Below are positions 8,345 to 56,798 of a stretch of 64,000 bases of DNA, in pieces (the stretch's first letter is position 1; each line of letters begins with the position of its first letter). The notes beneath the pieces are model-generated. The model did not search any database. It worked only from the letters and a program-made list of their open reading frames with translations, and was not told where the DNA came from. The stretch comes from a virus (Duplodnaviria; Heunggongvirae; Uroviricota; Caudoviricetes): the IMG/VR virus record IMGVR_UViG_2703718772_000011. One strand, 5' to 3'. A program made the position numbers and the translations under genes.

Positions 8345-9487
8345 TTACAGGTCTGCAAACTGGCTTAGAGAAGCCTTGTCCACGGTAGAATCGATCTGAC
8401 CTACCAGATATGTGCTTTGCTCTGCCTCTTGTGGTGCAATTTGCAGTGTGTCGGTTAACAACCACTTGTTCATCCAGACCAGCGGATCAGTGGTAACTTC
8501 TGGAAATAAAGCCTTCAGGCCAAGACGATTCATAGCCAGATTGGTGCGGTATTTTACATAGGTCTTCAGAATATCCGCGTTTAAACCAATCATCGAACCG
8601 TCTTTGAAGAGATAGTCTGCCCAGTTCATTTCTTGTTCGGCGACTGATTTCATGGTGTCGTAAATGACGTTTTCTTCATCAGCAGCAATCTCTTTCCACA
8701 ATAAACCTTCGCGACCGGTACGCATGAAGCGGATCATGCGTTCAGTTCCTTCGCAATGCAGAGCTTCATCACGGGCAATAAAGCGCATAATTTTGGTGTT
8801 ACCCTCAAGCAACTTCCGTTCGCCAAAGGCAAACGTACATGCAAAACTTACATAGAAACGGATCGCCTCAAGCGCATTAATGGACACCAACGTGCGGAAA
8901 AGCTGACGGTGCAAAGGGTATGGCTCCCAGCCATATTCATTTACGTACAGACGTTCAAACTCTTTCTCACCTAACGACTGGCGCTCGCAGGTCATCCCAT
9001 AAAGCCTGTCATATTCAGCAGAGATACTGATCGCTCGGTTGATGATTTCTTCATCCGTAACAATACCGTCAAAAACAATACTCGGATCGTCCACCATGCC
9101 ACGAATAATGTGGGTGTAGCTGCGGCTATGGATAGTCTCAGAGAAAGACCATGTTTCAACCCACGTTTCCAGTTCAGGAATAGAGATAAGCGGCAGAAGC
9201 GTTGCATTTGGGCTACGTCCCTGAACTGAATCGAGTAACGTTTGATAACGGAGATTGCTCAGAAAAATGTGACGTTCGTGGTCCCGCAGCTTCGTGTTGA
9301 AGTCGATACGATCACTCGAAATATCAACTTCTTCCGGCCGCCAGAAGAAAGACAATTGACGTTCAATCAACTTTTCAAAATCACGGTATTTTTGCTGATC
9401 GTAACGTGCCACGTTGACAGATTGTCCGAGGAACATAGGCTCTTTGGTTGCATCATTAGCACCCAAACGGAACGTTGAATATGACAT
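8345..9487 (-). CDS. nrdB: ribonucleotide reductase class Ia beta subunit
   Basis: Near-collinear with E. coli NrdB ([53 protein letters not shown]). Confidence 0.95.
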
Positions 9488-9587
9488 GTGTTTTTCCTTT
9501 TTTGATGTGTTTAAACAAGTTGTTATCTTATGTGTTTAAACAAGGCTTACAAATCAAAGATAAGGTGGGGATATACCCCACCATATG

Positions 9588-11903
9588 TCAGATTTTGCAG
9601 GCTCCGTCGCACTCATCTTCTGGCTCGACGGCTACAGCTTGCGTAAGTGGATTCTGCGCTTCGTCGTCATCACGCTTTCCTGCACCATCTCTGGTGTTGT
9701 GGTAGTAAAGCGTTTTAACTCCCATCTTGTAGGCGAGAAGCAAATCTGACAGTAGCGTCATCATTGGGACTTTATCGCCTTCAAAGCGAGAAGGGTCATA
9801 GTTGGTATTGGCTGAAATAGCCTGGTCAAAGAACTTCTGGATGATCGCCACCTTTGTCAGATAGCCGCGGTTGTCCGGCATATCCCACAGGTATTCATAC
9901 TGTTCCTTCAGTTTTTCAAACTCAGGCACGACCATCTTAACGATGCCGTCCTTAGAAGATTTCACCGACACCGGTCCACGAGGCGGTTCGATGCCGTTGG
10001 TGGAATTAGTGATCTGGCTGGAAGTCTCGCATGGCATTTGTGCCGTCAGTGTGGAGTTGCGAAGGCCGTATTTTGCAATACGTTCACGGAGTTCTTCCCA
10101 CGGCATCTTTAACTCAAAGTTGGTTTCGCCACTTTCGTCTAATGAAGAACGGTAATGGTCGATCGGCAACTGACCAATTGCGTACTTGGTCTGCTCAAAC
10201 CAGTCACACTCACCTTTTGCTTCAGCAAGTCGGCAGCTGGCATCAAGAAGGTAATACTGGATAGCTTCGAACGTTTCATGCACCAGTTTATTGCCAGCGG
10301 TATCAGAATAAAGAACGCCATTCTTTGCCAGGTAATAAGCAAAGTTGGTTACACCAATTCCCAAGCTACGACGAGCTTTGGCAGGCACTTCGGCTGCCTC
10401 CATCGGATAGTCTTGATAATCCAGTAACGAATCCAGTGCAGCAACGGCATAGAACGCCACCTCTTTAAGAGACTCCAGTGAACGGATGGCTCCGAGGTTA
10501 AAAGCGGATAAAGTGCATAGCGCGATCTCACCGTTCGGGTCGTCGGTAAATGCCAGTGGACGAGTGGGTAGAGTGATCTCCATGCACAGGTTTGACTGGC
10601 GAACAGGTGCAAGAGCAGGAATGAAAGCGCCATGCTCGTTAATATGATCGACGTTCGCAATATAAATTCGGCCCGTGGACGCTCGTTCCTGCATCAGAGA
10701 TGAGAACAGCTCAATGGCAGGTACTGACTTCTTGCGAATTGAATCATCGGCTTCGTATTTATGGTACAGCTTTTCAAACAGCTCCTGGTCTGTGAAGAAG
10801 GCTTCGTACATATCAGGCACATCATGCGGGCTGAACAGAGTGATGTTCTCGCTTCTGACGAGTCGACGGTACATTAGACGGTTACTCATGACGCCGTAAT
10901 CAAGATGGCGAACGCGGTTTTCATCAATACCACGGTTATTTTTCACCACCAGCAGACTTTCAACTTCAAGATGCCAGATCGGGTAAAACGCTGTTGCTGC
11001 GCCACCACGAACACCACCTTGCGAACAAGATTTAACAGCCGTCTGGAAATGCTTCAGGAATGGAATAACTCCAGTATGGGTGGCTTCACCATTGCGGATC
11101 TCGCTGCCCAGCGCACGGATACGGCCAAAACCAATACCAATTCCAGCACGACGTGAAACGTAGTCGATAATTGCGGCTGAAGCTGCACTAATCCCTTTCA
11201 GACTATCGCCAGACTCAATCAGCACACAACTGGAGAACTGACGGGTTGGAGTACGGACGCCGGCCATGATTGGTGTGGGCAGAGACAGTTTGAACGTACT
11301 TGTAACGTCATAGAAACCTTTGACCATCTCCATACGTGTTTTGCCAGCGCAGTCGTCTTCCCAATTCTGGAACAGACACATGCCTACCAGCATATAGATA
11401 TGTTGCGGCCCCTCATGAATCTCACCAGTAACACGGTTTTGAACGAGGTATTTGCTTTGCAACTGCACCGTAGCTGCATAGCCAAAAAGATCGTCACGTT
11501 TCGGCTTAATGTAATTGCCGAGTTCTTCGATCTCTTCAAACGAATAATGTGTCAGCAAATCCTTGTCATAAACGCCCTTGTTAACGTTCTTGACAATGTG
11601 TTGGTAGAAGTTCGGATAGTCGTAACGACCGAAGGCATCTTTGCGGATTTTAAAAATGTTCAGGCGGGCAGCCACCTGTGAGTAATTTGGTGCTTCTGGT
11701 GAGATCAAATCAGCGGCAGATTTAACCAAAGCCTCATGCAACTGGCTGGTGGTAATCCCATCAAAAATGCTGGCCGCAGCTCCCATTGCTACAGCGGATG
11801 CGCTTACACCACGAATGCCTTCTACGCCATACATTACGACGCGGTTGTATTTTTCTTCGGATAACGGCTCTGTTTGGCCGTTACGTTTTACGATGCTTAT
11901 CAT
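9588..11903 (-). CDS. nrdA: ribonucleotide reductase class Ia alpha subunit
   Basis: 771 aa, N-terminal ATP-cone (VKRNGQTEP), catalytic-core motifs (SNLCMEI); size matches NrdA. Confidence 0.95.
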   Translation of the reverse strand: MISIVKRNGQTEPLSEEKYNRVVMYGVEGIRGVSASAVAMGAAASIFDGITTSQLHEALVKSAADLISPEAPNYSQVAARLNIFKIRKDAFGRYDYPNFYQHIVKNVNKGVYDKDLLTHYSFEEIEELGNYIKPKRDDLFGYAATVQLQSKYLVQNRVTGEIHEGPQHIYMLVGMCLFQNWEDDCAGKTRMEMVKGFYDVTSTFKLSLPTPIMAGVRTPTRQFSSCVLIESGDSLKGISAASAAIIDYVSRRAGIGIGFGRIRALGSEIRNGEATHTGVIPFLKHFQTAVKSCSQGGVRGGAATAFYPIWHLEVESLLVVKNNRGIDENRVRHLDYGVMSNRLMYRRLVRSENITLFSPHDVPDMYEAFFTDQELFEKLYHKYEADDSIRKKSVPAIELFSSLMQERASTGRIYIANVDHINEHGAFIPALAPVRQSNLCMEITLPTRPLAFTDDPNGEIALCTLSAFNLGAIRSLESLKEVAFYAVAALDSLLDYQDYPMEAAEVPAKARRSLGIGVTNFAYYLAKNGVLYSDTAGNKLVHETFEAIQYYLLDASCRLAEAKGECDWFEQTKYAIGQLPIDHYRSSLDESGETNFELKMPWEELRERIAKYGLRNSTLTAQMPCETSSQITNSTNGIEPPRGPVSVKSSKDGIVKMVVPEFEKLKEQYEYLWDMPDNRGYLTKVAIIQKFFDQAISANTNYDPSRFEGDKVPMMTLLSDLLLAYKMGVKTLYYHNTRDGAGKRDDDEAQNPLTQAVAVEPEDECDGACKI

Positions 11904-11976
11904 GTATCACCAAATAAAGAGGGCCACTAAATATAGTGGCCCATGTTAATAGATAAGCACTTACCTATCAATGAAA

Positions 11977-12546
11977 TCAAATGAGAGACTTAAGAACATC
12001 GCGCACCTGGCGGAACTGATCTGTTTGCATACCGGTATGGATGGCAGCCACCGCATCAGCCAAATGTTCGTTTTTGTTCACGAGAACATCCTGTCCAGAT
12101 TGCTTACGACGCAGCCACGGTGCTTTAGGGTGTTTTTTCGTAGCCCACTGGATAATCTCTTCTTTCGATGTAGTAAGTTTATTGCCGACAAAATGCTTGA
12201 TTTCGTTTGGAGTGACCTGGATCAATGGCTTATCCACACACGCAAGTACACCGATACAAATACCGTAAGACGTCTGCGAACGAGAGTTTTGGCTCCCAAC
12301 CGGTAGTTCACAAAAAACCATATTCGCCTTATCAATGATTGGCTTCGCAACACGCCATATTTCACTGGCACGGCGCAGATCGTCACTGTTCACACGAACG
12401 GTCTTTTTGTTACTCCCCGCTTTAGTCTCAACAAGAGTAAGGCCGTGAATCTCAAGTTCGTCCGTCTCAAGGTCTAAAGTGCCCACAGCAAGCCCAAAGT
12501 TGCTCATTGAGGGATCAACACCAACTACGCTGATTTTTTTACTCAT
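11977..12546 (-). CDS. RuvC-like Holliday-junction resolvase (putative)
   Basis: N-terminal VVGVDPSMSNFGLAV and C-terminal HLADAVAA resemble RuvC catalytic motifs. Confidence 0.55.
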   Translation of the reverse strand: MSKKISVVGVDPSMSNFGLAVGTLDLETDELEIHGLTLVETKAGSNKKTVRVNSDDLRRASEIWRVAKPIIDKANMVFCELPVGSQNSRSQTSYGICIGVLACVDKPLIQVTPNEIKHFVGNKLTTSKEEIIQWATKKHPKAPWLRRKQSGQDVLVNKNEHLADAVAAIHTGMQTDQFRQVRDVLKSLI

Positions 12547-12555
12547 ATAGTCTCC

Positions 12556-13299
12556 TTACCATGTTCCCCATATAGGGTTTTCCAATAATCTCGCCTCCAA
12601 CGAATTGGCTACTATTGCCGTTTGCAACGTTGGTTGGGGATAGTTTGCAAAGTCTGAATACTCATTTTCCTGCGTGACACGTTTATCTACGGCATGTTTA
12701 ACGCCACTTGCTATGAAATGACGCATGATGCCCAACAGCCTCCGACTGTCTGCACTATCGTTTGCTAAAACATGAGGGAGCTGAAGTTCGATTTCTACCA
12801 TTTCTCCATACTTACCAACAAACTGTAGTTTGTCCGCACTGTACTTTTTATCCCTCCTTTGGATAAGGAAACCAGTAAAAGCATCACCTGGCGATGCCAA
12901 ACTATCCACCCGCTTATTGGCAAGTCGAATAAGGTTCGTGAAAGCCATACAGTGATGCGCACCCATTCCCCCAAAGAACCCTTCGCTATTAATGTTAAGA
13001 TCTTCAGTTTCATGGGATGCAATAAACCCAGGCCCGACGTTGGGAAGATATCCCCCCTCAACAAAAGGATTAATCAGGATCGGCGCAATACATCCAGGTG
13101 GTAGTGATTTCAAACTTTGCATCAATGGCGTCTCGGATATTAGACCAAGCAACGCGGCGAATTGTACTCCGTCAATATTGTTGCTGCCCCACAGAATACG
13201 TGGAGCCGCACCATTGGAAGTATGCCCATTGATCAGTTTTATCGACTGCATCACTGCAAATACCTGCAAAAACTGCGAGCGGCTTAATTTAAACGACAT
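12556..13299 (-). CDS. hypothetical protein (247 aa)
   Basis: ORF immediately downstream of the SbcC-like gene. Confidence 0.5.
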   Translation of the reverse strand: MSFKLSRSQFLQVFAVMQSIKLINGHTSNGAAPRILWGSNNIDGVQFAALLGLISETPLMQSLKSLPPGCIAPILINPFVEGGYLPNVGPGFIASHETEDLNINSEGFFGGMGAHHCMAFTNLIRLANKRVDSLASPGDAFTGFLIQRRDKKYSADKLQFVGKYGEMVEIELQLPHVLANDSADSRRLLGIMRHFIASGVKHAVDKRVTQENEYSDFANYPQPTLQTAIVANSLEARLLENPIWGTW

Positions 13300-48258: not shown

Positions 48259-49026
48259 ATGGACGATTTATCGGTATACGCGAGATCATTGGATAAGGCT
48301 AAATACTATGTTTACTGTCTCTATGATACAGAAGACAAGATGAAAAGACCGTTTTACATAGGAAAAGGCAAATCGACTCGTTGTCTCGATCACATCAAGT
48401 ATCCCGATGACTCTCCCAAATCCATGCGGATCAAAGAACTTTTGGCTAATAAAAAATTAGGCATAGATATACTTCGTCATGGTATGGATGAAACCACAGC
48501 CAAACTTGTTGAGGCGACATGCATCGACCTTATGGGGGTCGGAGAGCTTACGAATAAGGTACGAGGAAGTGGTTCCATGATGGGCAGAATATCACTGGAC
48601 GCCTACCATCACTTAGTGCTGCAAGAGGAAACTGAAATTGCTCCTGAGCACGCCGGTCTTGCCTTCCTGCTAAACAGCACCTACAAGTCAGGAATGTCCG
48701 CTCTGGCATTATATGAAGCTACGCGTGGCGTATGGGCAAAGGTTCCAAGAGACGAGAATCTCAAATATGCCTACGCTACATATGGTGGGCTGATAATGGA
48801 AGTTTATCAGATTGAATGCTGGGTCAAAGCCGGTTCTCAGCAGTACTTTACAAGGGATATAGCTCTTGGCCCCGACACAAAACGTTATGAATTTGTTGGC
48901 AGAATAGCCGATGAGCATATTAGAAAACTGTATGTAGGCAAATTAATCAAGAAGCCACCAAGCTACGGTAGCCCTTTTGTGAAGGTTGGGGTGGTTAGGA
49001 CTGAACATAGTGTTAGCGCGGCATAA
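48259..49026 (+). CDS. GIY-YIG nuclease domain protein
   Basis: N-terminal YYVYCLYDTEDKMKRPFYIGKGKSTRCLDH fits the GIY-(x10-11)-YIG...R...H pattern. Confidence 0.6.
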   Translation: MDDLSVYARSLDKAKYYVYCLYDTEDKMKRPFYIGKGKSTRCLDHIKYPDDSPKSMRIKELLANKKLGIDILRHGMDETTAKLVEATCIDLMGVGELTNKVRGSGSMMGRISLDAYHHLVLQEETEIAPEHAGLAFLLNSTYKSGMSALALYEATRGVWAKVPRDENLKYAYATYGGLIMEVYQIECWVKAGSQQYFTRDIALGPDTKRYEFVGRIADEHIRKLYVGKLIKKPPSYGSPFVKVGVVRTEHSVSAA

Positions 49027-49078: not shown

Positions 49079-49438
49079 TTAACCTTTCTTCATCAACTCT
49101 CGTTTGATTTCATCGGTACGCATCGTGACATCGGCAGCGGTGATCGCCTCATTCAATTTCACGATGTCCTCGATTTCCTGCGGTGACTTCTCTGCCAGAT
49201 GGAAAATGGCTGCTCGAATCACGTCAGAACGAGTGAACTTCTCGAAGCGAGGGATGAACTTCATCATCTCCAGCAGTTCGAAGTATTCGTCCTCCAGTGA
49301 CATTGTGCGGCTTTTAATTTTCTCTTTGCCACGAGTCGGGCGTCCCTGTGGTCTGACTGGTTGGCGCAAAGGAGTTGTGTTCTTAGCCGGTGCATCAGGC
49401 TCTTTGCGCTTTGCTAGGTCACCCATTTTCATGGACAT
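49079..49438 (-). CDS. putative partition adaptor / centromere-binding protein (ParG/ParB-like)
   Basis: Small basic protein immediately downstream of parA; assignment by context only. Confidence 0.4.
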   Translation of the reverse strand: MSMKMGDLAKRKEPDAPAKNTTPLRQPVRPQGRPTRGKEKIKSRTMSLEDEYFELLEMMKFIPRFEKFTRSDVIRAAIFHLAEKSPQEIEDIVKLNEAITAADVTMRTDEIKRELMKKG

Positions 49439-50106
49439 TATTCTTCTTCCTCCAGACTCAACAGATAATCTACAAATTCTTCAAACTCGGCTTCCGCCTT
49501 CTTGTCGCGTTCGCTACCGGTCATTTCAAAGATAGAACGACCTGACTCTTCCGCATCATCGTAGACGTTGCGGTTATATAGATTGACTGGCGCAGACTCG
49601 ATGCCGAACGTCTCGACAATCTCTTTAGCCGCCAGAATGCGAGACACTTGTGATGGCAAAGCCGGGCACTGGTTCATGACCGCGCGGACCTTCACTTTAT
49701 CGTTTACATTGCGAACATTGTCGATAATAGGATCGATGTCACGTAAAGATTTCAAATCACGACGCTTAGGACGCAGCGGGATAATGATAACGTCAGCCAT
49801 CAGCATCGCTTGTCGCTGAATTTCGGAGTCGAAGCCACCAGCATCTACCACTACAAACTCAGCTCTACCCTGAAGCGATTTTAGGTGCTTAATGATGTCA
49901 TCCTGAACGTATGCAAAAGGAATCAGCTCAAGGTCTTCGTTCTGTCGACGGTCTTCACACCAGCTCGTTGTCGTGCGCTGAATATCTATATCGGTAATAT
50001 AAACCTTCTTCTTCTTTTTGACTTTCAGGCAAACGGCAATTTGCTGGGCAACGGTGGATTTGCCAGGCCCGCCCTTTGTGCCGCCAACCACAAAGATCTT
50101 GGTCAT
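49438..50106 (-). CDS. parA: ParA/ParF-type partition ATPase
   Basis: Deviant Walker A GGTKGGPGKST; 222 aa small ParA. Confidence 0.85.
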   Translation of the reverse strand: MTKIFVVGGTKGGPGKSTVAQQIAVCLKVKKKKKVYITDIDIQRTTTSWCEDRRQNEDLELIPFAYVQDDIIKHLKSLQGRAEFVVVDAGGFDSEIQRQAMLMADVIIIPLRPKRRDLKSLRDIDPIIDNVRNVNDKVKVRAVMNQCPALPSQVSRILAAKEIVETFGIESAPVNLYNRNVYDDAEESGRSIFEMTGSERDKKAEAEFEEFVDYLLSLEEEE

Positions 50107-50424
50107 TGGAGAGTTCCCTTTGCGTATATAATTATCGTCTGAAACAACTTGTTTTCTTATATGTGATATAGCCTAAATGCCTACGGCTGCGGTGTAAAGG
50201 TTAAATGGTAGGTTGTGATTAACAATTGGCAATCATAGCTTGTATTTGTCTGTTGAAAAAAGTAACAATGACCTCTATATTACAAGTACGGTGATATGCC
50301 GTACACAATTTGATAATGCACACGTAATGGGCTATAGCCTTTTAAAGTAATTTTTGAGTCGAAAACTCAGTTTGAACAGAGGAGATTGATGGCCTTCCTT
50401 CATCACGGCCATCAGGAGGAATAC

Positions 50425-50694
50425 ATGTCAGCACTAAAAAAGCAGCGCATCGATTTGAGATTAACCGATGACGATAAAAGCATCATCGAGGAAGCTGCCG
50501 CAATGTCTAACCAGAGCATTACTCAGTTTATGGTTAGCAGTGCATCTGAACGTGCCGTGAAAGTTATAGAGCAACACCGTAGACTAGTTCTGAATGAAGA
50601 ATCCTGGAATCTGGTTATGGACGCTATAAGCAATCCTCCGGCACCGAACGACAAGCTGAAACGAGCTGCTGATCGTCTGAAAAGCATGGAGTAG
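50425..50694 (+). CDS. DUF1778-type antitoxin (TacA/AtaR-like)
   Basis: Start at Met after AGGAGG RBS; RLTDDDKSIIEEAAAMSNQSITQFMVSSA...EQHRRLVL typical of antitoxins paired with GNAT toxins. Confidence 0.75.
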   Translation: MSALKKQRIDLRLTDDDKSIIEEAAAMSNQSITQFMVSSASERAVKVIEQHRRLVLNEESWNLVMDAISNPPAPNDKLKRAADRLKSME

Positions 50695-50701
50695 TTTACT
50701 C

Positions 50702-51223
50702 GTGAGCAATACAACGATAGAGATTTTCTCTGGAGAGAAAGATTATGATCTAAACGGTTTTGATTGCGGCGAAGAGTCACTAAACGCCTTTTTAGCCAAC
50801 CACTTAAAAAGGCAGCATGAGGGAAAAATTCTTCGTGCTTATGTGCTTTGCACTCAAGAAGAAAGGCCAAAAGTGTTAGGATATTACACTTTGTCAGGTA
50901 GTTGTTTTGAAAAGGAGTCCTTACCTTCAAGAAGCAAACAAAAGAAGGTTCCTTATCGGAATGTTCCAAGTGTTACTTTGGGTAGGCTGGCTTTGGACAA
51001 GTCCCTTCAAGGTCAAGGATTTGGCTCAATGCTTGTAACACATGCAATGCGCGTTGTGTACAATGCATCTCTTGCTGTAGGCATTCATGGACTTTTCGTT
51101 GAGGCGTTAAATGACAAAGCCAAGGCGTTTTATAAAAGTTTAGGCTTTATCCAGCTGGTTGGTAACAACGAGCGTTCTTTGTTCTATCCTACAAAATCTA
51201 TCGAAAAATTGTTCGAAGAATAA
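50702..51223 (+). CDS. GNAT-family acetyltransferase toxin (TacT/AtaT-like)
   Basis: GTG start 8 nt after antitoxin stop; FDCG motif and GNAT core (QGQGFGSMLV). Confidence 0.75.
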   Translation: MSNTTIEIFSGEKDYDLNGFDCGEESLNAFLANHLKRQHEGKILRAYVLCTQEERPKVLGYYTLSGSCFEKESLPSRSKQKKVPYRNVPSVTLGRLALDKSLQGQGFGSMLVTHAMRVVYNASLAVGIHGLFVEALNDKAKAFYKSLGFIQLVGNNERSLFYPTKSIEKLFEE

Positions 51224-51255
51224 TGTGTTCCCCTCATTTGAGGGGAACTTCGACA

Positions 51256-51471
51256 TCACCAACCACAAACCCTCTCTCCCATCGTATTGTGAAAAAGGAT
51301 TTGGCGTTCGGTTTCTTCAGTCATTACATCATTATTGCTGATATAGATAGGCTCAGCCCCATCGCAGAACAACACGCTGGCTGTTTGTGGTTTAATGACG
51401 CACCCACTTATCATACAACTCACGATGAACGGCAGAAGCATCTTTCTGACGTATTTTACTGCTCGTCTCAT
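51256..51471 (-). CDS. o-spanin (outer-membrane lipoprotein, Rz1-like)
   Basis: Signal peptide plus lipobox MISGC; C-terminal Cys; embedded in alternate frame overlapping the i-spanin gene. Confidence 0.6.
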   Translation of the reverse strand: MRRAVKYVRKMLLPFIVSCMISGCVIKPQTASVLFCDGAEPIYISNNDVMTEETERQILFHNTMGERVCGW

Positions 51472-51643
51472 TCACCACTTTCACTGTGTTTTGAAGTCGT
51501 TTTCTGTCTTCCTGTTTTGCCTTCTCTTCCATTGCTCGTCGCGCCGCATTCCCGCCCATCGTGTAAGCGCCGACAAGAACGAAAAGAACGGCAGCCAGCG
51601 TAATCAAAGCAACTTTTAGCTTTGTCATCAGGCTGCCTAGCAT
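51392..51643 (-). CDS. i-spanin (Rz-like)
   Basis: N-terminal TM helix then charged helical region; overlaps o-spanin ORF by 80 nt. Confidence 0.6.
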   Translation of the reverse strand: MLGSLMTKLKVALITLAAVLFVLVGAYTMGGNAARRAMEEKAKQEDRKRLQNTVKVVNETSSKIRQKDASAVHRELYDKWVRH

Positions 51644-51644
51644 A

Positions 51645-52364
51645 TTAGACCATCCCTTTCTGGTGTTTTCTTACCTGCGACCAGGCAATGAATCCTGCCA
51701 CAACAATAGTGGCAATACCGAAGATGATGCGTACTGTATCCCCGCTAGAGATATGACCTTGTGCTTTATCCATAGCAGCGGAAACCTGCGGCATAACATC
51801 GGCCAGCTGCGCCAGACCAATACCTGCTGTAACAGTTGCGCCTGCGGTTTCTTTAGTTACAGGAACAGCCTTCACGGTTTTCACCGGCTTAACAACGCCA
51901 GCTCGACGCAGACCTTCCTCAATAACTTCTGCCGCATACCAGGTGTTCAGCGTTTTTAGCGGGCCTCGGCCATTCTCGTGGCGAATGATTGCCTCAACCA
52001 AAGGTCGAAGGATGTCGTAATCATGCAGATCGATGATCATGTCTGCGGTTACACCAACGGCTTTAGACACCTCATTAATGTAGGCGTCAGTATTGTTTTC
52101 ATTCGGCGGTGCCCAGCGTTCAATAACTTCACGAATGGTATCGATACTTGTGCCGTCTTTTGCGCGACGTTTATCGTGGTAGGTAATTAGAGTCACCGCC
52201 AGCGCACGAATCCCCCAAACAGGGTCTTTAAACGTGCAAAAGCGCGGTTCGTCTGGATTCGCAACCAGACCTTGCCACGGTGATCCTTTATCAAGATTAC
52301 CGGGGTTATTATTACGAATGCCTCTCGGAGTCTTCATCCTTGATCTCCTGTTATTGCAGTCCAC
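51645..52364 (-). CDS. lysis-cassette protein with C-terminal TM anchor (candidate muralytic enzyme)
   Basis: GIRNNNPGNL motif near N-terminus, C-terminal hydrophobic helix; function inferred from position. Confidence 0.45.
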   Translation of the reverse strand: MDCNNRRSRMKTPRGIRNNNPGNLDKGSPWQGLVANPDEPRFCTFKDPVWGIRALAVTLITYHDKRRAKDGTSIDTIREVIERWAPPNENNTDAYINEVSKAVGVTADMIIDLHDYDILRPLVEAIIRHENGRGPLKTLNTWYAAEVIEEGLRRAGVVKPVKTVKAVPVTKETAGATVTAGIGLAQLADVMPQVSAAMDKAQGHISSGDTVRIIFGIATIVVAGFIAWSQVRKHQKGMV

Positions 52365-52686
52365 TTTTTACGCCATACGCGGCTAACCCCAAAAGCAGTG
52401 CGGTAATAATGAACGACGTTATTTTAGAAACAATGCCGCCAAAGAACCCACTTGAGATGGAATCTAACCGGTTAAGGAGTTTGTCCAGATTGGAGTGTTG
52501 AATACTATGTTGCGCCGGGGTCATATCACCAAAGTAGGTTTTCAGCTGATCATTGACCTCCTGGCCAATTTCTTCACGTAGCTCTTTACCTAATTTGCCA
52601 ACAACCTCCCGAGCAACGATCGCGGCAATACGCTCAACTTGCTCTGTTGTAACGCCCGCCATCTCGTTCGACATGTTTTCCTCCAT
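52351..52686 (-). CDS. membrane protein (holin candidate)
   Basis: 111 aa with C-terminal TM helix, first gene of the lysis cluster. Confidence 0.4.
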   Translation of the reverse strand: MEENMSNEMAGVTTEQVERIAAIVAREVVGKLGKELREEIGQEVNDQLKTYFGDMTPAQHSIQHSNLDKLLNRLDSISSGFFGGIVSKITSFIITALLLGLAAYGVKSGLQ

Positions 52687-52876: not shown

Positions 52877-53119
52877 TCAGTTACTTGTTGCCCCAACAGT
52901 ACCTGCAAATTTCAGCCATTGACCTGACGGACTTCTATTACTACGGTAGTGATAAACGAGGATTGCGTTTGTAACTCCACCGTAGTCAGCTTTATGTGAC
53001 GTTGTTAAACGAATTGTATAATCACCGTTAGGTAGATTAAAAACTTCGATTATAGATTCTGCTAATTCTACAGCACCAAATCCCGTTATATTGTTGATAC
53101 TGCCAGCATTGAATCCCAT
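52877..53119 (-). CDS. small beta-rich protein downstream of tail fibre (possible fibre accessory protein)
   Basis: 80 aa ORF in the position of lambda tfa; weak RBS. Confidence 0.4.
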   Translation of the reverse strand: MGFNAGSINNITGFGAVELAESIIEVFNLPNGDYTIRLTTSHKADYGGVTNAILVYHYRSNRSPSGQWLKFAGTVGATSN

Positions 53120-53150: not shown

Positions 53151-56100
53151 CTAAACGCCCCATTTGATTTTAGGTGGGGATATGGACAAACTCATGCCCA
53201 TATCCCCACCTGAAACAGAGGAAGTTCGCACAGTCATGCTTGGAAGAGCACTGCTCTTCACATAGGAACTTAGAAGGTTTGTTACCTCTGTTTTCGTATA
53301 AGCATTAACATTAGCCGCAGTCAAAGTTATATCGGCAGAGCCATCAAACGCCACACCAGCAATTTTCCTTGCTGTCTGCAATTTTGTGGCGGTGGCAGCA
53401 TTACCAGTAGTGTTCTGATTACCGGTTGTATTCACACCAGGTATTGAATCCTTAGCGGTATATACCTGCGCCCACGCTGACCATTCCGAACCTACGGTAT
53501 CTCTTCGTGAGCGAATGAAAACTGGCGCATGTGCACCGCTCGTACCACTCCAGCCAATAAGCAACTCTCCCTCACCAGAAGCACTCGCACCTTTCATGTG
53601 CAATACGTTGCCATACATGGTCGGGTAGCTATTGTTGTACGCCTCATACATTTGAATGCCAGCAGTGCCTTGAGTAGAGCCGCTTAACGCCGTAACTCGG
53701 CCACGAGATACCAATGTATTAATATTGATATCGCCTGAACCATCAAACTTAACACCATTGATGTTTCTCGCTGTTTGCAACTTCGTAGCTGTTGAAGCAT
53801 TACCGTTCAAACTACCATTTACGCCACCAGTAACATTTAGTCCATTACCAATGGACACAGCACCGCTGGTATTATTAATTATAATAGGTCGCAAACCGTT
53901 CCATGAACCTAATGTGTTTCCTGATGCTGTTAGCATGAAATATGTGTTCGATCCATCATTACGGATAAAGAACCCAAAGCTACCGTAAGCAATGCGGAAA
54001 CCATTTGCATATTTTGAAACGATCTCACCAGAAGACGTTAATCCGCCAGTTAACGCTCCTCCAGATAGTGGTAAAGCTCCGACATCAGCCGCAGTAGGCT
54101 TGTTTTTAGTGTTATACGCTCTGCGCCATCCTGGTGAATAGCTCGTCCCGTTAAATACATAGATAAACTCCGCATTAGTGAGAGCACCAGAGACACTCGT
54201 CGTTGTGGCCGTTGTTATTCGAATGGTGTAATAAGTTGCACTGTGGCTGAATACTTCTATCACCGCCCCCGCAAGTGGAATAACGCCACAACCAGTTTCA
54301 CTATTTGGTATGGTTGCGCTATTGGCATAGGCCCACGCACATCGAGCAATCCATGACTTTGTGTTAAATGCTCCATTATTTTGCAATAACGTCACTAACT
54401 GTGCTGTTGTTATTGCTCCGCCATTACTTCCTGTAGTTAACCAACCAGTAGGAGATGCCGGGCAACCTATATTTGTTGGCGACAAGGAAATATTTGCCGA
54501 GCCGTCAAACGACACCCCATTGATAGTACGCGCAGTCTGCAACTTCGTAGCAGTAGCCGCGTTGCCCGTTGTATTCTGATTACCAGTCGTATTAACACCT
54601 GGCAAATTAATATTCGCAGTACCATCAAAGCTCACGCCGCCGATAGTTCTTGCCGTCTGAAGTTTTGTAGCAGTTGCAGCATTACCAGTGGTGTTCTGAT
54701 TACCCGTAGTATTTACACCTGGAAGGTTGATATTTGCAGAACCGTCGAAACCAACTCCACCGATAGATCTTGCCGTCTGCAATTTCGTTGCTGTACTCGC
54801 ATTGCCATTCAATGAACCAGTTAATCCACCAGTAACAGACAACGGACCTGAAACCGTCCCTCCTGATGTTGATAATGCACCTATATCCGATGGCGTAGGT
54901 TTGTATTTTGTATTGTAGTCTCGTCGCCAGCCAGGAGCGTAAGCATCACCATGATTAATATAAGTGAATTGAGCGTTAGTGATTCCGCCATCGACGGAAG
55001 TGCTTGGTGTTGTTACACGGATGGTCATGGCACCTTTATGGCCCATAACTTCAATAACGCAACCCGCAAGGTGAATAAGTCCACATCCGGTGTCAGTAAT
55101 AATTTTATTATTGCCGTATGACCATGAGCATTTACACATCCAGTATGGATGATTGAAGGCCCACTGAGATTCCAGCCATTCAATAAATTGCGCCGTCGTC
55201 CAGTTTCCTGCACCTGTGCTAATAGAGCCATGAAAAGAGCGGCAAGCACCTATTGTTTGCGTAAATTTATCTTTGTTTGGAATATCTGCGCCATTCTGAT
55301 TCTTCGCCAATCGGCTATTCGCATTGTCATTCGCAGCTTTAACTGCCTTTGGAGTTGCAGCCAGTGATTCGCTGGTGCTATCGACAGCACTGCTAAGTTT
55401 CACAACACCTTTAGTTGTAAGGCTTGCGTCTTCCATCGCAACTGCACCGGCAATCTCTTCAGCACGATCAGCGGCAGCTTCTGCACGGGTCGCAGCGGAT
55501 TCAGCAGCAGTTTTGCTCTGAGATGCAGCCGTCGCACTGCCTGCCGCCTCTGTTGCTTTCGTGGATGCCGCCGTGGCGCTGCCCTTCGCTGCTGACGCCT
55601 GTCTGGTCGCCTCATCTTTTGAAGCAGACGCAGATGATGCCGATGACGCTGCCGAACTGGCGGACGATGCGGCTGCCGTTTTTGAGGATTCTGCACGGGT
55701 TTCCGACGCTTTCGCGTTCGTTTCGGATGTCTTCGCTGCGGAAGCAGACCTCGCTGCTGCGCTGGCCTGTTCAGTGGCTTGGCCAGCCTTCGTTGTGGCT
55801 GTTGAAGCAGACGATGCGGCACTTTCTGCCGATTTTCCGGCGGCGGTGGCACTGGCTGAGGCCTGCCCGGCACTTGTTGACGCGGCACTGGCAGACGACG
55901 CAGCCGCTGTTTTTGAGCCTGCCGCAGCCGAGGCACTCTGTCCCGCTGCCGTTTCAGAAGACCTGGCGTTCGTCTCGGACGTTTTTGCCGCCTTCGCGGA
56001 ATTTCCTGCCGCCGTTGCCGAGGAAGCGGCATTACTGGCGCTCGAGGCTGCGCTCGTTTCTGATGATTTCGCTGCCTCTTTTGAGGCCGCCGCATCCCGG

Positions 56101-56798
56101 GCTGAGGTGGCAGCTTCTGACGCCTTCGTGGTCGCGGTGGATGCAGAAGTGGCTGCAGATTTTTGTGACGCTGCAGCATTCGTTTCAGATTTTTTCGCAG
56201 CAGTTGCACTCGCACTTGCGGCACTTTGTGAGGATGCCGCAGCGGATGCACTTTGAGACGCTTGAGAGGCTTTTTCTCCAGCGGCATTGGCGCTTTTTGC
56301 TGCTGCGGCAGCACTGGCCGCCGCCTCACGAGCTTTGTCGCCAGCAGCATCAATCGCGTCAGTGTTATTTTTATACCACTCAACGTTTTCGTTGTGCTCG
56401 TTGACGATCTGCATTAGCGGCTTAACGGTCACTTCTGTACCGTCTTCACGCTCGATTGTCACCTCATCCAGCGCAGTCAACCAACTGCGCATGGACTTGG
56501 AATCAGCCGACATACGCGACATTAGCGCAGTAAAGCGCGCGCTAAACTGTGTTAAGTCGCCTTCATAGGTCGTAATGATTCGGCACGGAACTTCAGACTG
56601 AGTTTCGCCGGTATAAGGTTCTGAGAGAACAATATTCGTATCGCTTGTTACGCGCTTGATCTCATACAGCTTATTGTCGGGGCCAATGACGATCATCCCC
56701 GGCAACACACCATTAGCTGTTACGTTCCAGGCTGTCCCTGCCCCAACCAGAGTATTGCTACCCTGTGTAAATGTGATAGTACCTTCCCTGTACCACAT
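53151..56798 (-). CDS. tail fibre protein
   Basis: 1215 aa; Ala/Ser-rich low-complexity region, repeated NAATATKLQTAR-I-GV-FDGSANI units; follows the J-like gene as in lambda. Confidence 0.85.
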   Translation of the reverse strand: MWYREGTITFTQGSNTLVGAGTAWNVTANGVLPGMIVIGPDNKLYEIKRVTSDTNIVLSEPYTGETQSEVPCRIITTYEGDLTQFSARFTALMSRMSADSKSMRSWLTALDEVTIEREDGTEVTVKPLMQIVNEHNENVEWYKNNTDAIDAAGDKAREAAASAAAAAKSANAAGEKASQASQSASAAASSQSAASASATAAKKSETNAAASQKSAATSASTATTKASEAATSARDAAASKEAAKSSETSAASSASNAASSATAAGNSAKAAKTSETNARSSETAAGQSASAAAGSKTAAASSASAASTSAGQASASATAAGKSAESAASSASTATTKAGQATEQASAAARSASAAKTSETNAKASETRAESSKTAAASSASSAASSASSASASKDEATRQASAAKGSATAASTKATEAAGSATAASQSKTAAESAATRAEAAADRAEEIAGAVAMEDASLTTKGVVKLSSAVDSTSESLAATPKAVKAANDNANSRLAKNQNGADIPNKDKFTQTIGACRSFHGSISTGAGNWTTAQFIEWLESQWAFNHPYWMCKCSWSYGNNKIITDTGCGLIHLAGCVIEVMGHKGAMTIRVTTPSTSVDGGITNAQFTYINHGDAYAPGWRRDYNTKYKPTPSDIGALSTSGGTVSGPLSVTGGLTGSLNGNASTATKLQTARSIGGVGFDGSANINLPGVNTTGNQNTTGNAATATKLQTARTIGGVSFDGTANINLPGVNTTGNQNTTGNAATATKLQTARTINGVSFDGSANISLSPTNIGCPASPTGWLTTGSNGGAITTAQLVTLLQNNGAFNTKSWIARCAWAYANSATIPNSETGCGVIPLAGAVIEVFSHSATYYTIRITTATTTSVSGALTNAEFIYVFNGTSYSPGWRRAYNTKNKPTAADVGALPLSGGALTGGLTSSGEIVSKYANGFRIAYGSFGFFIRNDGSNTYFMLTASGNTLGSWNGLRPIIINNTSGAVSIGNGLNVTGGVNGSLNGNASTATKLQTARNINGVKFDGSGDININTLVSRGRVTALSGSTQGTAGIQMYEAYNNSYPTMYGNVLHMKGASASGEGELLIGWSGTSGAHAPVFIRSRRDTVGSEWSAWAQVYTAKDSIPGVNTTGNQNTTGNAATATKLQTARKIAGVAFDGSADITLTAANVNAYTKTEVTNLLSSYVKSSALPSMTVRTSSVSGGDMGMSLSISPPKIKWGV
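53172..53211. repeat. perfect 14-bp inverted repeat inside the last 20 codons of the tail-fibre gene (aggtggggatatgg-N12-ccatatccccacct)
   Basis: Read directly; encodes GDMGMSLSISPP. Confidence 0.8.
55388..56363 (-). repeat. GC-rich low-complexity coding repeat (Ala/Ser/Thr-rich segment of tail fibre)
   Basis: Generates long spurious ORFs in other frames on both strands. Confidence 0.8.

Follow-up and report, generated by a model that had tools for sequence, protein, structure and literature searches.

A predicted AtaRT/KacAT-type toxin-antitoxin operon in a variable slot beside parA of an SSU5-like phage-plasmid

A gene pair resembling the AtaR-AtaT and KacA-KacT toxin-antitoxin (TA) systems lies on the plus strand, at positions 50425-51223, of a 64,000-nucleotide stretch of Caudoviricetes DNA (IMG/VR record IMGVR_UViG_2703718772_000011), which is referred to here as the window. 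The antitoxin gene (50425-50694) runs from ATG 50425 to TAG 50694 and encodes a protein of 89 residues, predicted to consist of an N-terminal ribbon-helix-helix (RHH) part and a C-terminal toxin-wrapping region, of the TacA1/DUF1778 family. The toxin gene (50702-51223) runs from GTG 50702 to TAA 51223 and encodes a predicted GNAT acetyltransferase of 173 residues belonging to the AtaT/KacT clade. The left neighbour is parA (49438-50106) and the right neighbours are Rz1, Rz, endolysin and holin genes (51256-52686), all on the minus strand; the open reading frames (ORFs) and these neighbours confirm the position between parA and the lysis genes that was given in the original prediction. The antitoxin-first order on one strand, given there as well, also holds, whereas the intergenic gap was found to be 7 nt (TTTACTC) rather than 8 nt, and the start codon of the toxin is corrected to GTG. 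A Shine-Dalgarno sequence read from the sequence, AGGAGG (50414-50419, plus strand), precedes the antitoxin ATG by 5 nt, and a GGAG at 50688-50691, within the last antitoxin codons, precedes the toxin start. A consensus scan of the region revealed no promoter-like site between the two genes, which are predicted to form a bicistronic operon.

Among sequences of solved structures, the toxin was found to match AtaT of Escherichia coli O157:H7 (6GTS, 6AJM, 6AJN, 6GTP/Q and 7CHD) with E values of about 1e-79 (best 1.4e-79) and KacT of Klebsiella pneumoniae (5XUN and 5ZGN) with values of about 1e-75 (4e-75), while the structures of TacT- and ItaT-like toxins match far more weakly (1e-11 to 1e-21). 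Global alignment of the toxin with AtaT yielded 69.4% identity with zero gaps. In addition, several GNAT Pfam families match above their gathering scores. These matches bear out the proposal that the protein is a GNAT of the tRNA-acetylating type, and the FDCG string on which that proposal drew was located at residues 20-23. A single-sequence AlphaFold2 model of the toxin was too poor to use (mean pLDDT 37, pTM 0.25). The acetyltransferase fold, on which the original prediction hung, is assigned instead because of the 69% ungapped identity to crystal structures of GNAT toxins. In NCBIfam, no specific equivalog model for the pair was found; the toxin gave only weak matches below cut-off (RimI, MshD and others), and the antitoxin only weak below-cut-off matches to MobA and RelB.

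The functional residues of the toxin are largely conserved. The acetyl-CoA loop is kept as Q101-G-Q-G-F-G106 (consensus Q/R-x-x-G-x-G/A), together with G108, and the catalytic residue Y144 is present. In AtaT, G108 serves acetyl-CoA binding, Y144 is catalytic, and S76, S78, K79, K81 and K82 are contacts made by helix alpha-3 (PMC7595197). When 18 AtaT residues whose mutation reduces toxicity (list taken from PMC7595197) were compared, 14 were found to be identical in the toxin: G108, Y144, Y85, R95, L27, L136, F30, H34, R37, S76, S78, K79, K81 and K82. The differences from AtaT comprise the conservative changes A26S, R71K and K77R, the change R40E, and the GTG start. The tRNA acceptor-stem contacts S76-K79 were reported to be kept only in close AtaT relatives such as KacT (PMC7595197); of these clade-specific residues, S76, S78 and K79 are identical in the toxin and K77 is conservatively replaced. 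The hydrophobic aminoacyl pocket, formed in AtaT by A26, L27 and L136, likewise retains both leucines and has a conservative serine at position 26.

The antitoxin matches the Pfam family TacA1 (PF08681, formerly DUF1778) with an E value of 5.7e-26 over 79 of the 80 profile positions, in agreement with the DUF1778 signature noted originally. Among sequences of solved structures, it matches KacA (5ZGN_A, 6.6e-42) and AtaR (6AJM_C, 1.3e-40), with identities of 78.7% and 75.3%, respectively, in global alignments. Profile searches, suggested as a check, and comparison with the sequences of solved structures thus place both proteins in the AtaRT/KacAT clade. R8, D10 and R12 are identical to the residues with which KacA reads its operator in the KacAT-DNA structure (PMC6698736); M65 and I68, at the interface, are kept as well. 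A longer antitoxin ORF, starting at TTG 50386 or ATG 50389 and used in the ENA record of Escherichia phage Cyrano, was rejected in favour of ATG 50425, because KacA and AtaR align from residue 1, RefSeq uses 50425, and AGGAGG lies 5 nt upstream. The in-frame upstream start has a GGAG of its own and would extend the antitoxin by 12-13 residues, an extension that KacA, AtaR and the Enterobacter homologue described below all lack.

The region upstream of the pair contains a putative promoter and an operator-like palindrome. A sigma-70-like promoter, TTGAAA-17 nt-TATATT (50253-50281, plus strand), was the best of five sites found in the region by the consensus scan, as a pattern match at 10/12 positions. 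The palindrome GTACGG-TGATATG-CCGTAC (50286-50304) lies 4 nt 3' of the -10 hexamer, and its half-sites and 7-nt spacer length equal those of the 27-bp kacAT operator crystallised with KacA4KacT2 (TGTACGGTTATTAACCGTACA = AAATGTACGGTTATTAACCGTACATGA; PMC6698736). GTACGG-N7-CCGTAC has a single match in the window, even when one mismatch is allowed, against 0.03 expected by chance. The motif was also found upstream of chromosomal ataRT of E. coli O157:H7 (TGTACGGTGACATACCGTACA), of the divergent pair in an Enterobacter phage-plasmid and of a third pair on the E. coli plasmid p98201, and it is absent at the compared loci of SSU5-family elements that lack the pair. This distribution provides good sequence-level support for autorepression by an RHH antitoxin-toxin complex, which would bind the palindrome as operator. 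The third pair, a GNAT/DUF1778 lineage of about 68% DNA identity, adjoins repB and vapBC on large plasmids, p98201 among them.

The leader between operator and antitoxin start is 120 nt long. A search of Rfam at a permissive threshold over 49900-51500 returned only chance-level matches below gathering scores, and the long leader is therefore taken to hold no known RNA element. From the operator to the end of the antitoxin start codon, 151 nt in all, the sequence folds no better than shuffled versions of it (z -0.47). A perfect 8-bp hairpin (50387-50394/50407-50414) spans the 50386-50424 extension of the longer antitoxin ORF and touches the first Shine-Dalgarno base; it was considered as a regulatory element and dropped because of this fold result for the leader. 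Downstream of the pair, a terminator scan identified a G+C-rich hairpin with a 9-bp stem and 4-nt loop (51227-51248) between the convergent stops of the toxin gene (51223) and Rz1 (51256). The surrounding 51-nt stretch has an RNA fold of -17.3 kcal/mol (z -2.86 versus shuffles), and the T-tract of the hairpin is weak on the plus strand. This hairpin is likely to be a terminator or insulator for both transcription units.

Judged from sequence, it is highly probable that the pair is a type II TA operon of the GNAT/RHH (DUF1778) type within the AtaRT/KacAT clade and part of the accessory cargo of an SSU5-like phage-plasmid, and nothing was found to contradict the molecular assignment. The molecular picture established for AtaRT and KacAT very likely applies to this module by homology. 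The toxin would act as a homodimer, and the C-terminal part of the antitoxin would wrap around it, blocking acetyl-CoA binding and dimerisation in a T-A2-A2-T heterohexamer. The N-terminal RHH dimers of the complex would bind GTACGG-N7-CCGTAC just after the -10 element, and the bound complex would repress the operon, probably with conditional cooperativity. The heterohexamer, the blocked acetyl-CoA binding and dimerisation, and the conditional cooperativity were all described for KacAT (PMC6698736). Acetylation of the alpha-amino group of aminoacyl-tRNA was demonstrated for AtaT and KacT (PMC9177977, PMC7595197), and both toxins, as members of clade A, acetylate glycyl- and hydrophobic aminoacyl-tRNAs in vivo (PMC9177977). 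From these relatives we infer the toxicity of the pair described here, its tRNA targets by alpha-amino acetylation, and the stoichiometry of its complex.

Comparison with known systems revealed both likenesses and differences. AtaR-AtaT of E. coli O157:H7 (6AJM, 6GTS and 6GTO), which is chromosomal and lies between livJ and panM, has the same gene order with a gap of 6-7 nt and the same GTACGG-N7-CCGTAC operator; the toxins align without indels, and G108, Y144 and most of the tRNA contacts are identical. The antitoxin of the window has N70 and K77 as AtaR does, unlike KacA, in which these positions are Q70 and R77. The two systems differ in that the one in the window is a cargo cassette of a phage-plasmid with about 66% DNA identity to ataRT, and in that the ataR leader measures about 25-30 nt from operator to start, as opposed to 120 nt. 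KacA-KacT of K. pneumoniae (5XUN and 5ZGN) provides the closest antitoxin match and keeps R8, D10, R12, M65 and I68 in common with the pair of the window. Its operator is identical in half-sites and spacing, whereas the spacer sequence is TTATTAA instead of TGATATG, and the 5' half-site is flanked by T instead of A. KacA-KacT also differs in host genus and replicon type.

Closer in genomic setting are the pairs of SSU5-like elements from Enterobacter, Citrobacter and Cronobacter (e.g., pMRSN791417_6), which occupy the same slot between parA and Rz1 in the same orientation and belong to the same Pfam families, with the operator motif upstream and a hairpin after the toxin gene. These pairs differ in having about 76% DNA identity across the genes, a 3-nt intergenic gap, and a longer leader with a tandem repeat. 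In Enterobacter hormaechei pMRSN791417_6, this leader (about 1750-1830 of the stretch compared) contains tandem short units of GAAAACT / GAAAAATC(G)-like sequence; nothing like this GAAAACT-type repeat was found in the leader of the window. A shared logic, that of a type II TA system on a low-copy extrachromosomal element, links the pair to GmvAT of Shigella pINV, the TacAT family and phd-doc of P1. GmvAT stabilises Shigella pINV. The TacT-type toxins represent more distant clades, as is apparent from the E values of their structures, and phd-doc is unrelated in fold and mechanism. GmvT is a plasmid-borne GNAT toxin (PMC9431474), and P1-like phage-plasmids have phd-doc as a persistent gene pair (PMC7969092).

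The window is an SSU5-like phage-plasmid that is near-identical at this locus to pLF82/Cyrano. Over the 1.2 kb surrounding the module, identity is 99.9% to Cyrano (OV696614) and 100% to several plasmids from Escherichia albertii and E. coli, which measure about 110 kb. Cyrano, an SSU5-like phage-plasmid that produces virions, is the same element as pLF82, a plasmid found in the adherent-invasive strain LF82 of E. coli. The ENA record of Cyrano names the pair "KacT Acetyltransferase-type toxin" and "putative antitoxin", and the RefSeq names are "GNAT family N-acetyltransferase" and "DUF1778 domain-containing protein"; because of these names, the pair is already known at the level of annotation. 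In Cyrano, the two genes were listed among the morons and were transcribed 35- and 60-fold over the local prophage background in the lysogen (PMC9928086). The allele of the window was found in 145 PLSDB plasmids, 140 of them from Escherichia, mostly non-mobilizable and about 110 kb in size, and in 152 of 5426 complete E. coli genomes. The hosts of the element came from river water, poultry, pigs, cattle, dogs, humans and soil.

The module occupies a variable cargo cassette of about 1.05 kb (about 50214-51258), which contains the promoter, the operator, both genes and the hairpin and lies between the conserved region upstream of parA and the 3' end of Rz1. In blastn searches and alignments, homology to SSU5, an E. 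coli F8111 plasmid, an Enterobacter plasmid and Klebsiella phage pJN2-26 ends at 50212-50216 and restarts at 51255-51264. The length of the variable segment follows from breakpoints at 50213/50214 and about 51259-51264; the end coordinate of the cassette is good to about 5 nt and overlaps slightly with the last codons of Rz1 (stop 51256, minus strand). When the segment from parB-parA through holin (49079-52686) was used as a query, 737 PLSDB plasmids from Klebsiella, Escherichia, Enterobacter, Salmonella and other genera were matched; 133 of these cover at least 80% of the query, and most of the others match only the flanks. In SSU5 and some E. coli plasmids, the slot between parA and Rz1 holds two minus-strand genes of PHROGs 3307 and 2594, whose function is unannotated. 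The slot of Klebsiella phage pJN2-26 holds one ORF of 185 residues, and that of the Enterobacter, Citrobacter and Cronobacter elements the GNAT/DUF1778 pair described above. In the SSU5 supergroup, TA systems have been assigned to the shell genome (PMC7969092), and the distribution of the allele fits this placement.

The most likely role of the module is addiction to, and thereby stabilisation of, a low-copy plasmid prophage: on loss of the element, the labile antitoxin would be lost and the cell arrested. The module may also help its element to compete with related, incompatible phage-plasmids that lack it. Stabilisation or competition is ranked first because it is the default for a TA system encoded next to partition genes on a low-copy element, and the cassette adjoins parA in the plasmid-maintenance region. 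A stabilising and an anti-phage role, the two proposed originally, are not separated by the sequence; stabilisation has precedent.

Several points weigh against equating the pair with AtaT and against a need for it in maintenance. The pair is a sister lineage within the AtaRT/KacAT clade and not an AtaT orthologue, since RefSeq gives the names ataT and ataR to the chromosomal copies and a generic name to the genes described here; identities to AtaRT of 66% for DNA and 69% for protein, and a phage-plasmid locus instead of livJ-panM, were found. R40E, located in the basic helix alpha-1 that contacts tRNA, is not a conservative replacement, and the target preference could therefore differ from that of AtaT. 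No published assay of the exact protein or allele was found in the literature. Many SSU5-family elements lack the module. Furthermore, a cell was reported to contain about 5.5 copies of Cyrano, which also has parA and at least one other TA pair, HicAB, so that the module may be dispensable for maintenance.

A possible but rather unlikely reading goes beyond passive addiction: the cassette could be a swappable weapon between mobile elements, either aborting infection by other phages, together with the PD-T4-3-like gene across parAB, or deciding competition between incompatible SSU5-like elements, and its effect could be modulated by chromosomal ataRT. The latter was found in about 30% of complete E. 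coli genomes. Because ataRT has the same operator half-sites and an antitoxin of 75% identity, it could cross-repress or cross-neutralise the module, acting as an "anti-addiction" system. In the set of 5426 complete E. coli genomes, 1626 chromosomal matches were obtained, most of them to chromosomal ataRT (about 66% DNA identity), and about 71 genomes have two matching records, so that co-residence occurs and cross-talk is possible. The totals of this search mix alleles and carry no correction for phylogeny.

An anti-phage function is an unlikely alternative to stabilisation. As abortive-infection cargo, the module would respond to infection by another phage that halts host transcription or degrades the antitoxin; the toxin would be freed, translation blocked and the host population protected. 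The content of the cassette slot is swapped among SSU5-family elements, and PD-T4-3 and other defence systems were reported in such phage-plasmids from E. coli and Shigella (bioRxiv 10.1101/2025.09.12.675607). The slot across parAB in the window itself holds a PD-T4-3-like gene (PADLOC E value of 1.3e-23), and tRNA-targeting toxins are described as serving immunity generally (PMC12409363). However, a defence-gene neighbour is weak evidence in a maintenance region rich in accessory genes, and the alternative genes in the parA-Rz1 slot have no defence annotation. PADLOC-DB 2.0 contained no family matching the toxin, the antitoxin or the Enterobacter homologue at E <= 0.01, and full-text literature searches found no demonstration of phage defence by a GNAT/DUF1778 pair.

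Improbable, too, is a role as a moron for host physiology or virulence, in which the toxin drives persister formation or stress tolerance, or acetylates a protein instead of tRNA, to the benefit of the lysogen. A persister role inside macrophages was proposed for the Salmonella TacT toxins, overproduction of KacT induces antibiotic tolerance (PMC9431474), and one report describes acetylation of EspB Lys206 by AtaT and an enhancement of enterohaemorrhagic E. coli virulence (PMC7957018). The transcription of the module in the LF82 lysogen and its classification as a moron (PMC9928086) are in line with this role, but any TA operon under autoregulation should be transcribed constitutively, and hosts from sources ranging from river water to soil do not point to niche-specific virulence. 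Finally, that the genes encode an ordinary non-toxic GNAT acetyltransferase and a small regulator merely resembling a TA pair, as the generic GNAT matches in Pfam and NCBIfam (RimI-like and others) and the generic RefSeq product name might suggest, is very improbable given the 69% full-length identity to proven toxins as opposed to marginal, below-cut-off scores to housekeeping GNATs, the retention of the toxin-specific tRNA contacts S76, S78, K79, K81 and K82, and the presence of both a cognate DUF1778 antitoxin and an operator.

The biochemistry, structures and regulation of this family are well worked out, and the locus has little significance beyond correct annotation. What is added is a precise map of the cassette, a self-contained unit whose slot between parA and the lysis genes of SSU5-like phage-plasmids is prone to recombination, together with evidence that the GTACGG-N7-CCGTAC operator accompanies the clade whether its members lie on chromosomes, plasmids or phage-plasmids. 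Only three points are mildly new: where the cassette begins and ends, the variability of the slot between parA and Rz1, and the retention of the operator motif in different types of replicon. Phage-plasmids of this kind are widespread in E. coli and Shigella, and evidence that the module is their main stabiliser, or that it cross-talks with chromosomal ataRT, would help in curing or engineering them.

Some features of the surrounding region were also observed. On the other side of parAB, a plus-strand gene (48259-49026) encodes a GIY-YIG protein of 255 residues (Pfam LEM-3_GIY-YIG, 5.5e-7), and its residues 11-231 account for the match to PD-T4-3, a single-gene anti-phage system. The corresponding slot of Cyrano/pLF82 holds a DUF2971 gene on the opposite strand. 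Variable cargo slots thus lie on both sides of parAB. Just downstream of parA, a minus-strand gene (49079-49438) encodes a protein of 119 residues that is named "RelE/ParE putative toxin" in the ENA record of Cyrano. No Pfam match was found for this protein, and its only PHROG match is to a family of unknown function (phrog_5111, 4.5e-80). The position of the gene suggests that it encodes the centromere-binding partner of ParA, and the RelE/ParE label therefore looks doubtful. Near the lysis cassette, the tail-fibre gene (53151-56798, minus strand) encodes 1215 residues, compared with about 1341 in Cyrano (8678-12703 of the stretch compared), and contains repeated "NTTGNQNTTGNAATATKLQTAR" units along with long repeats rich in Ala and Ser; the gene is probably a host-range variable region. 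An ORF of 80 residues (52877-53119, minus strand) lies between the tail-fibre and holin genes.

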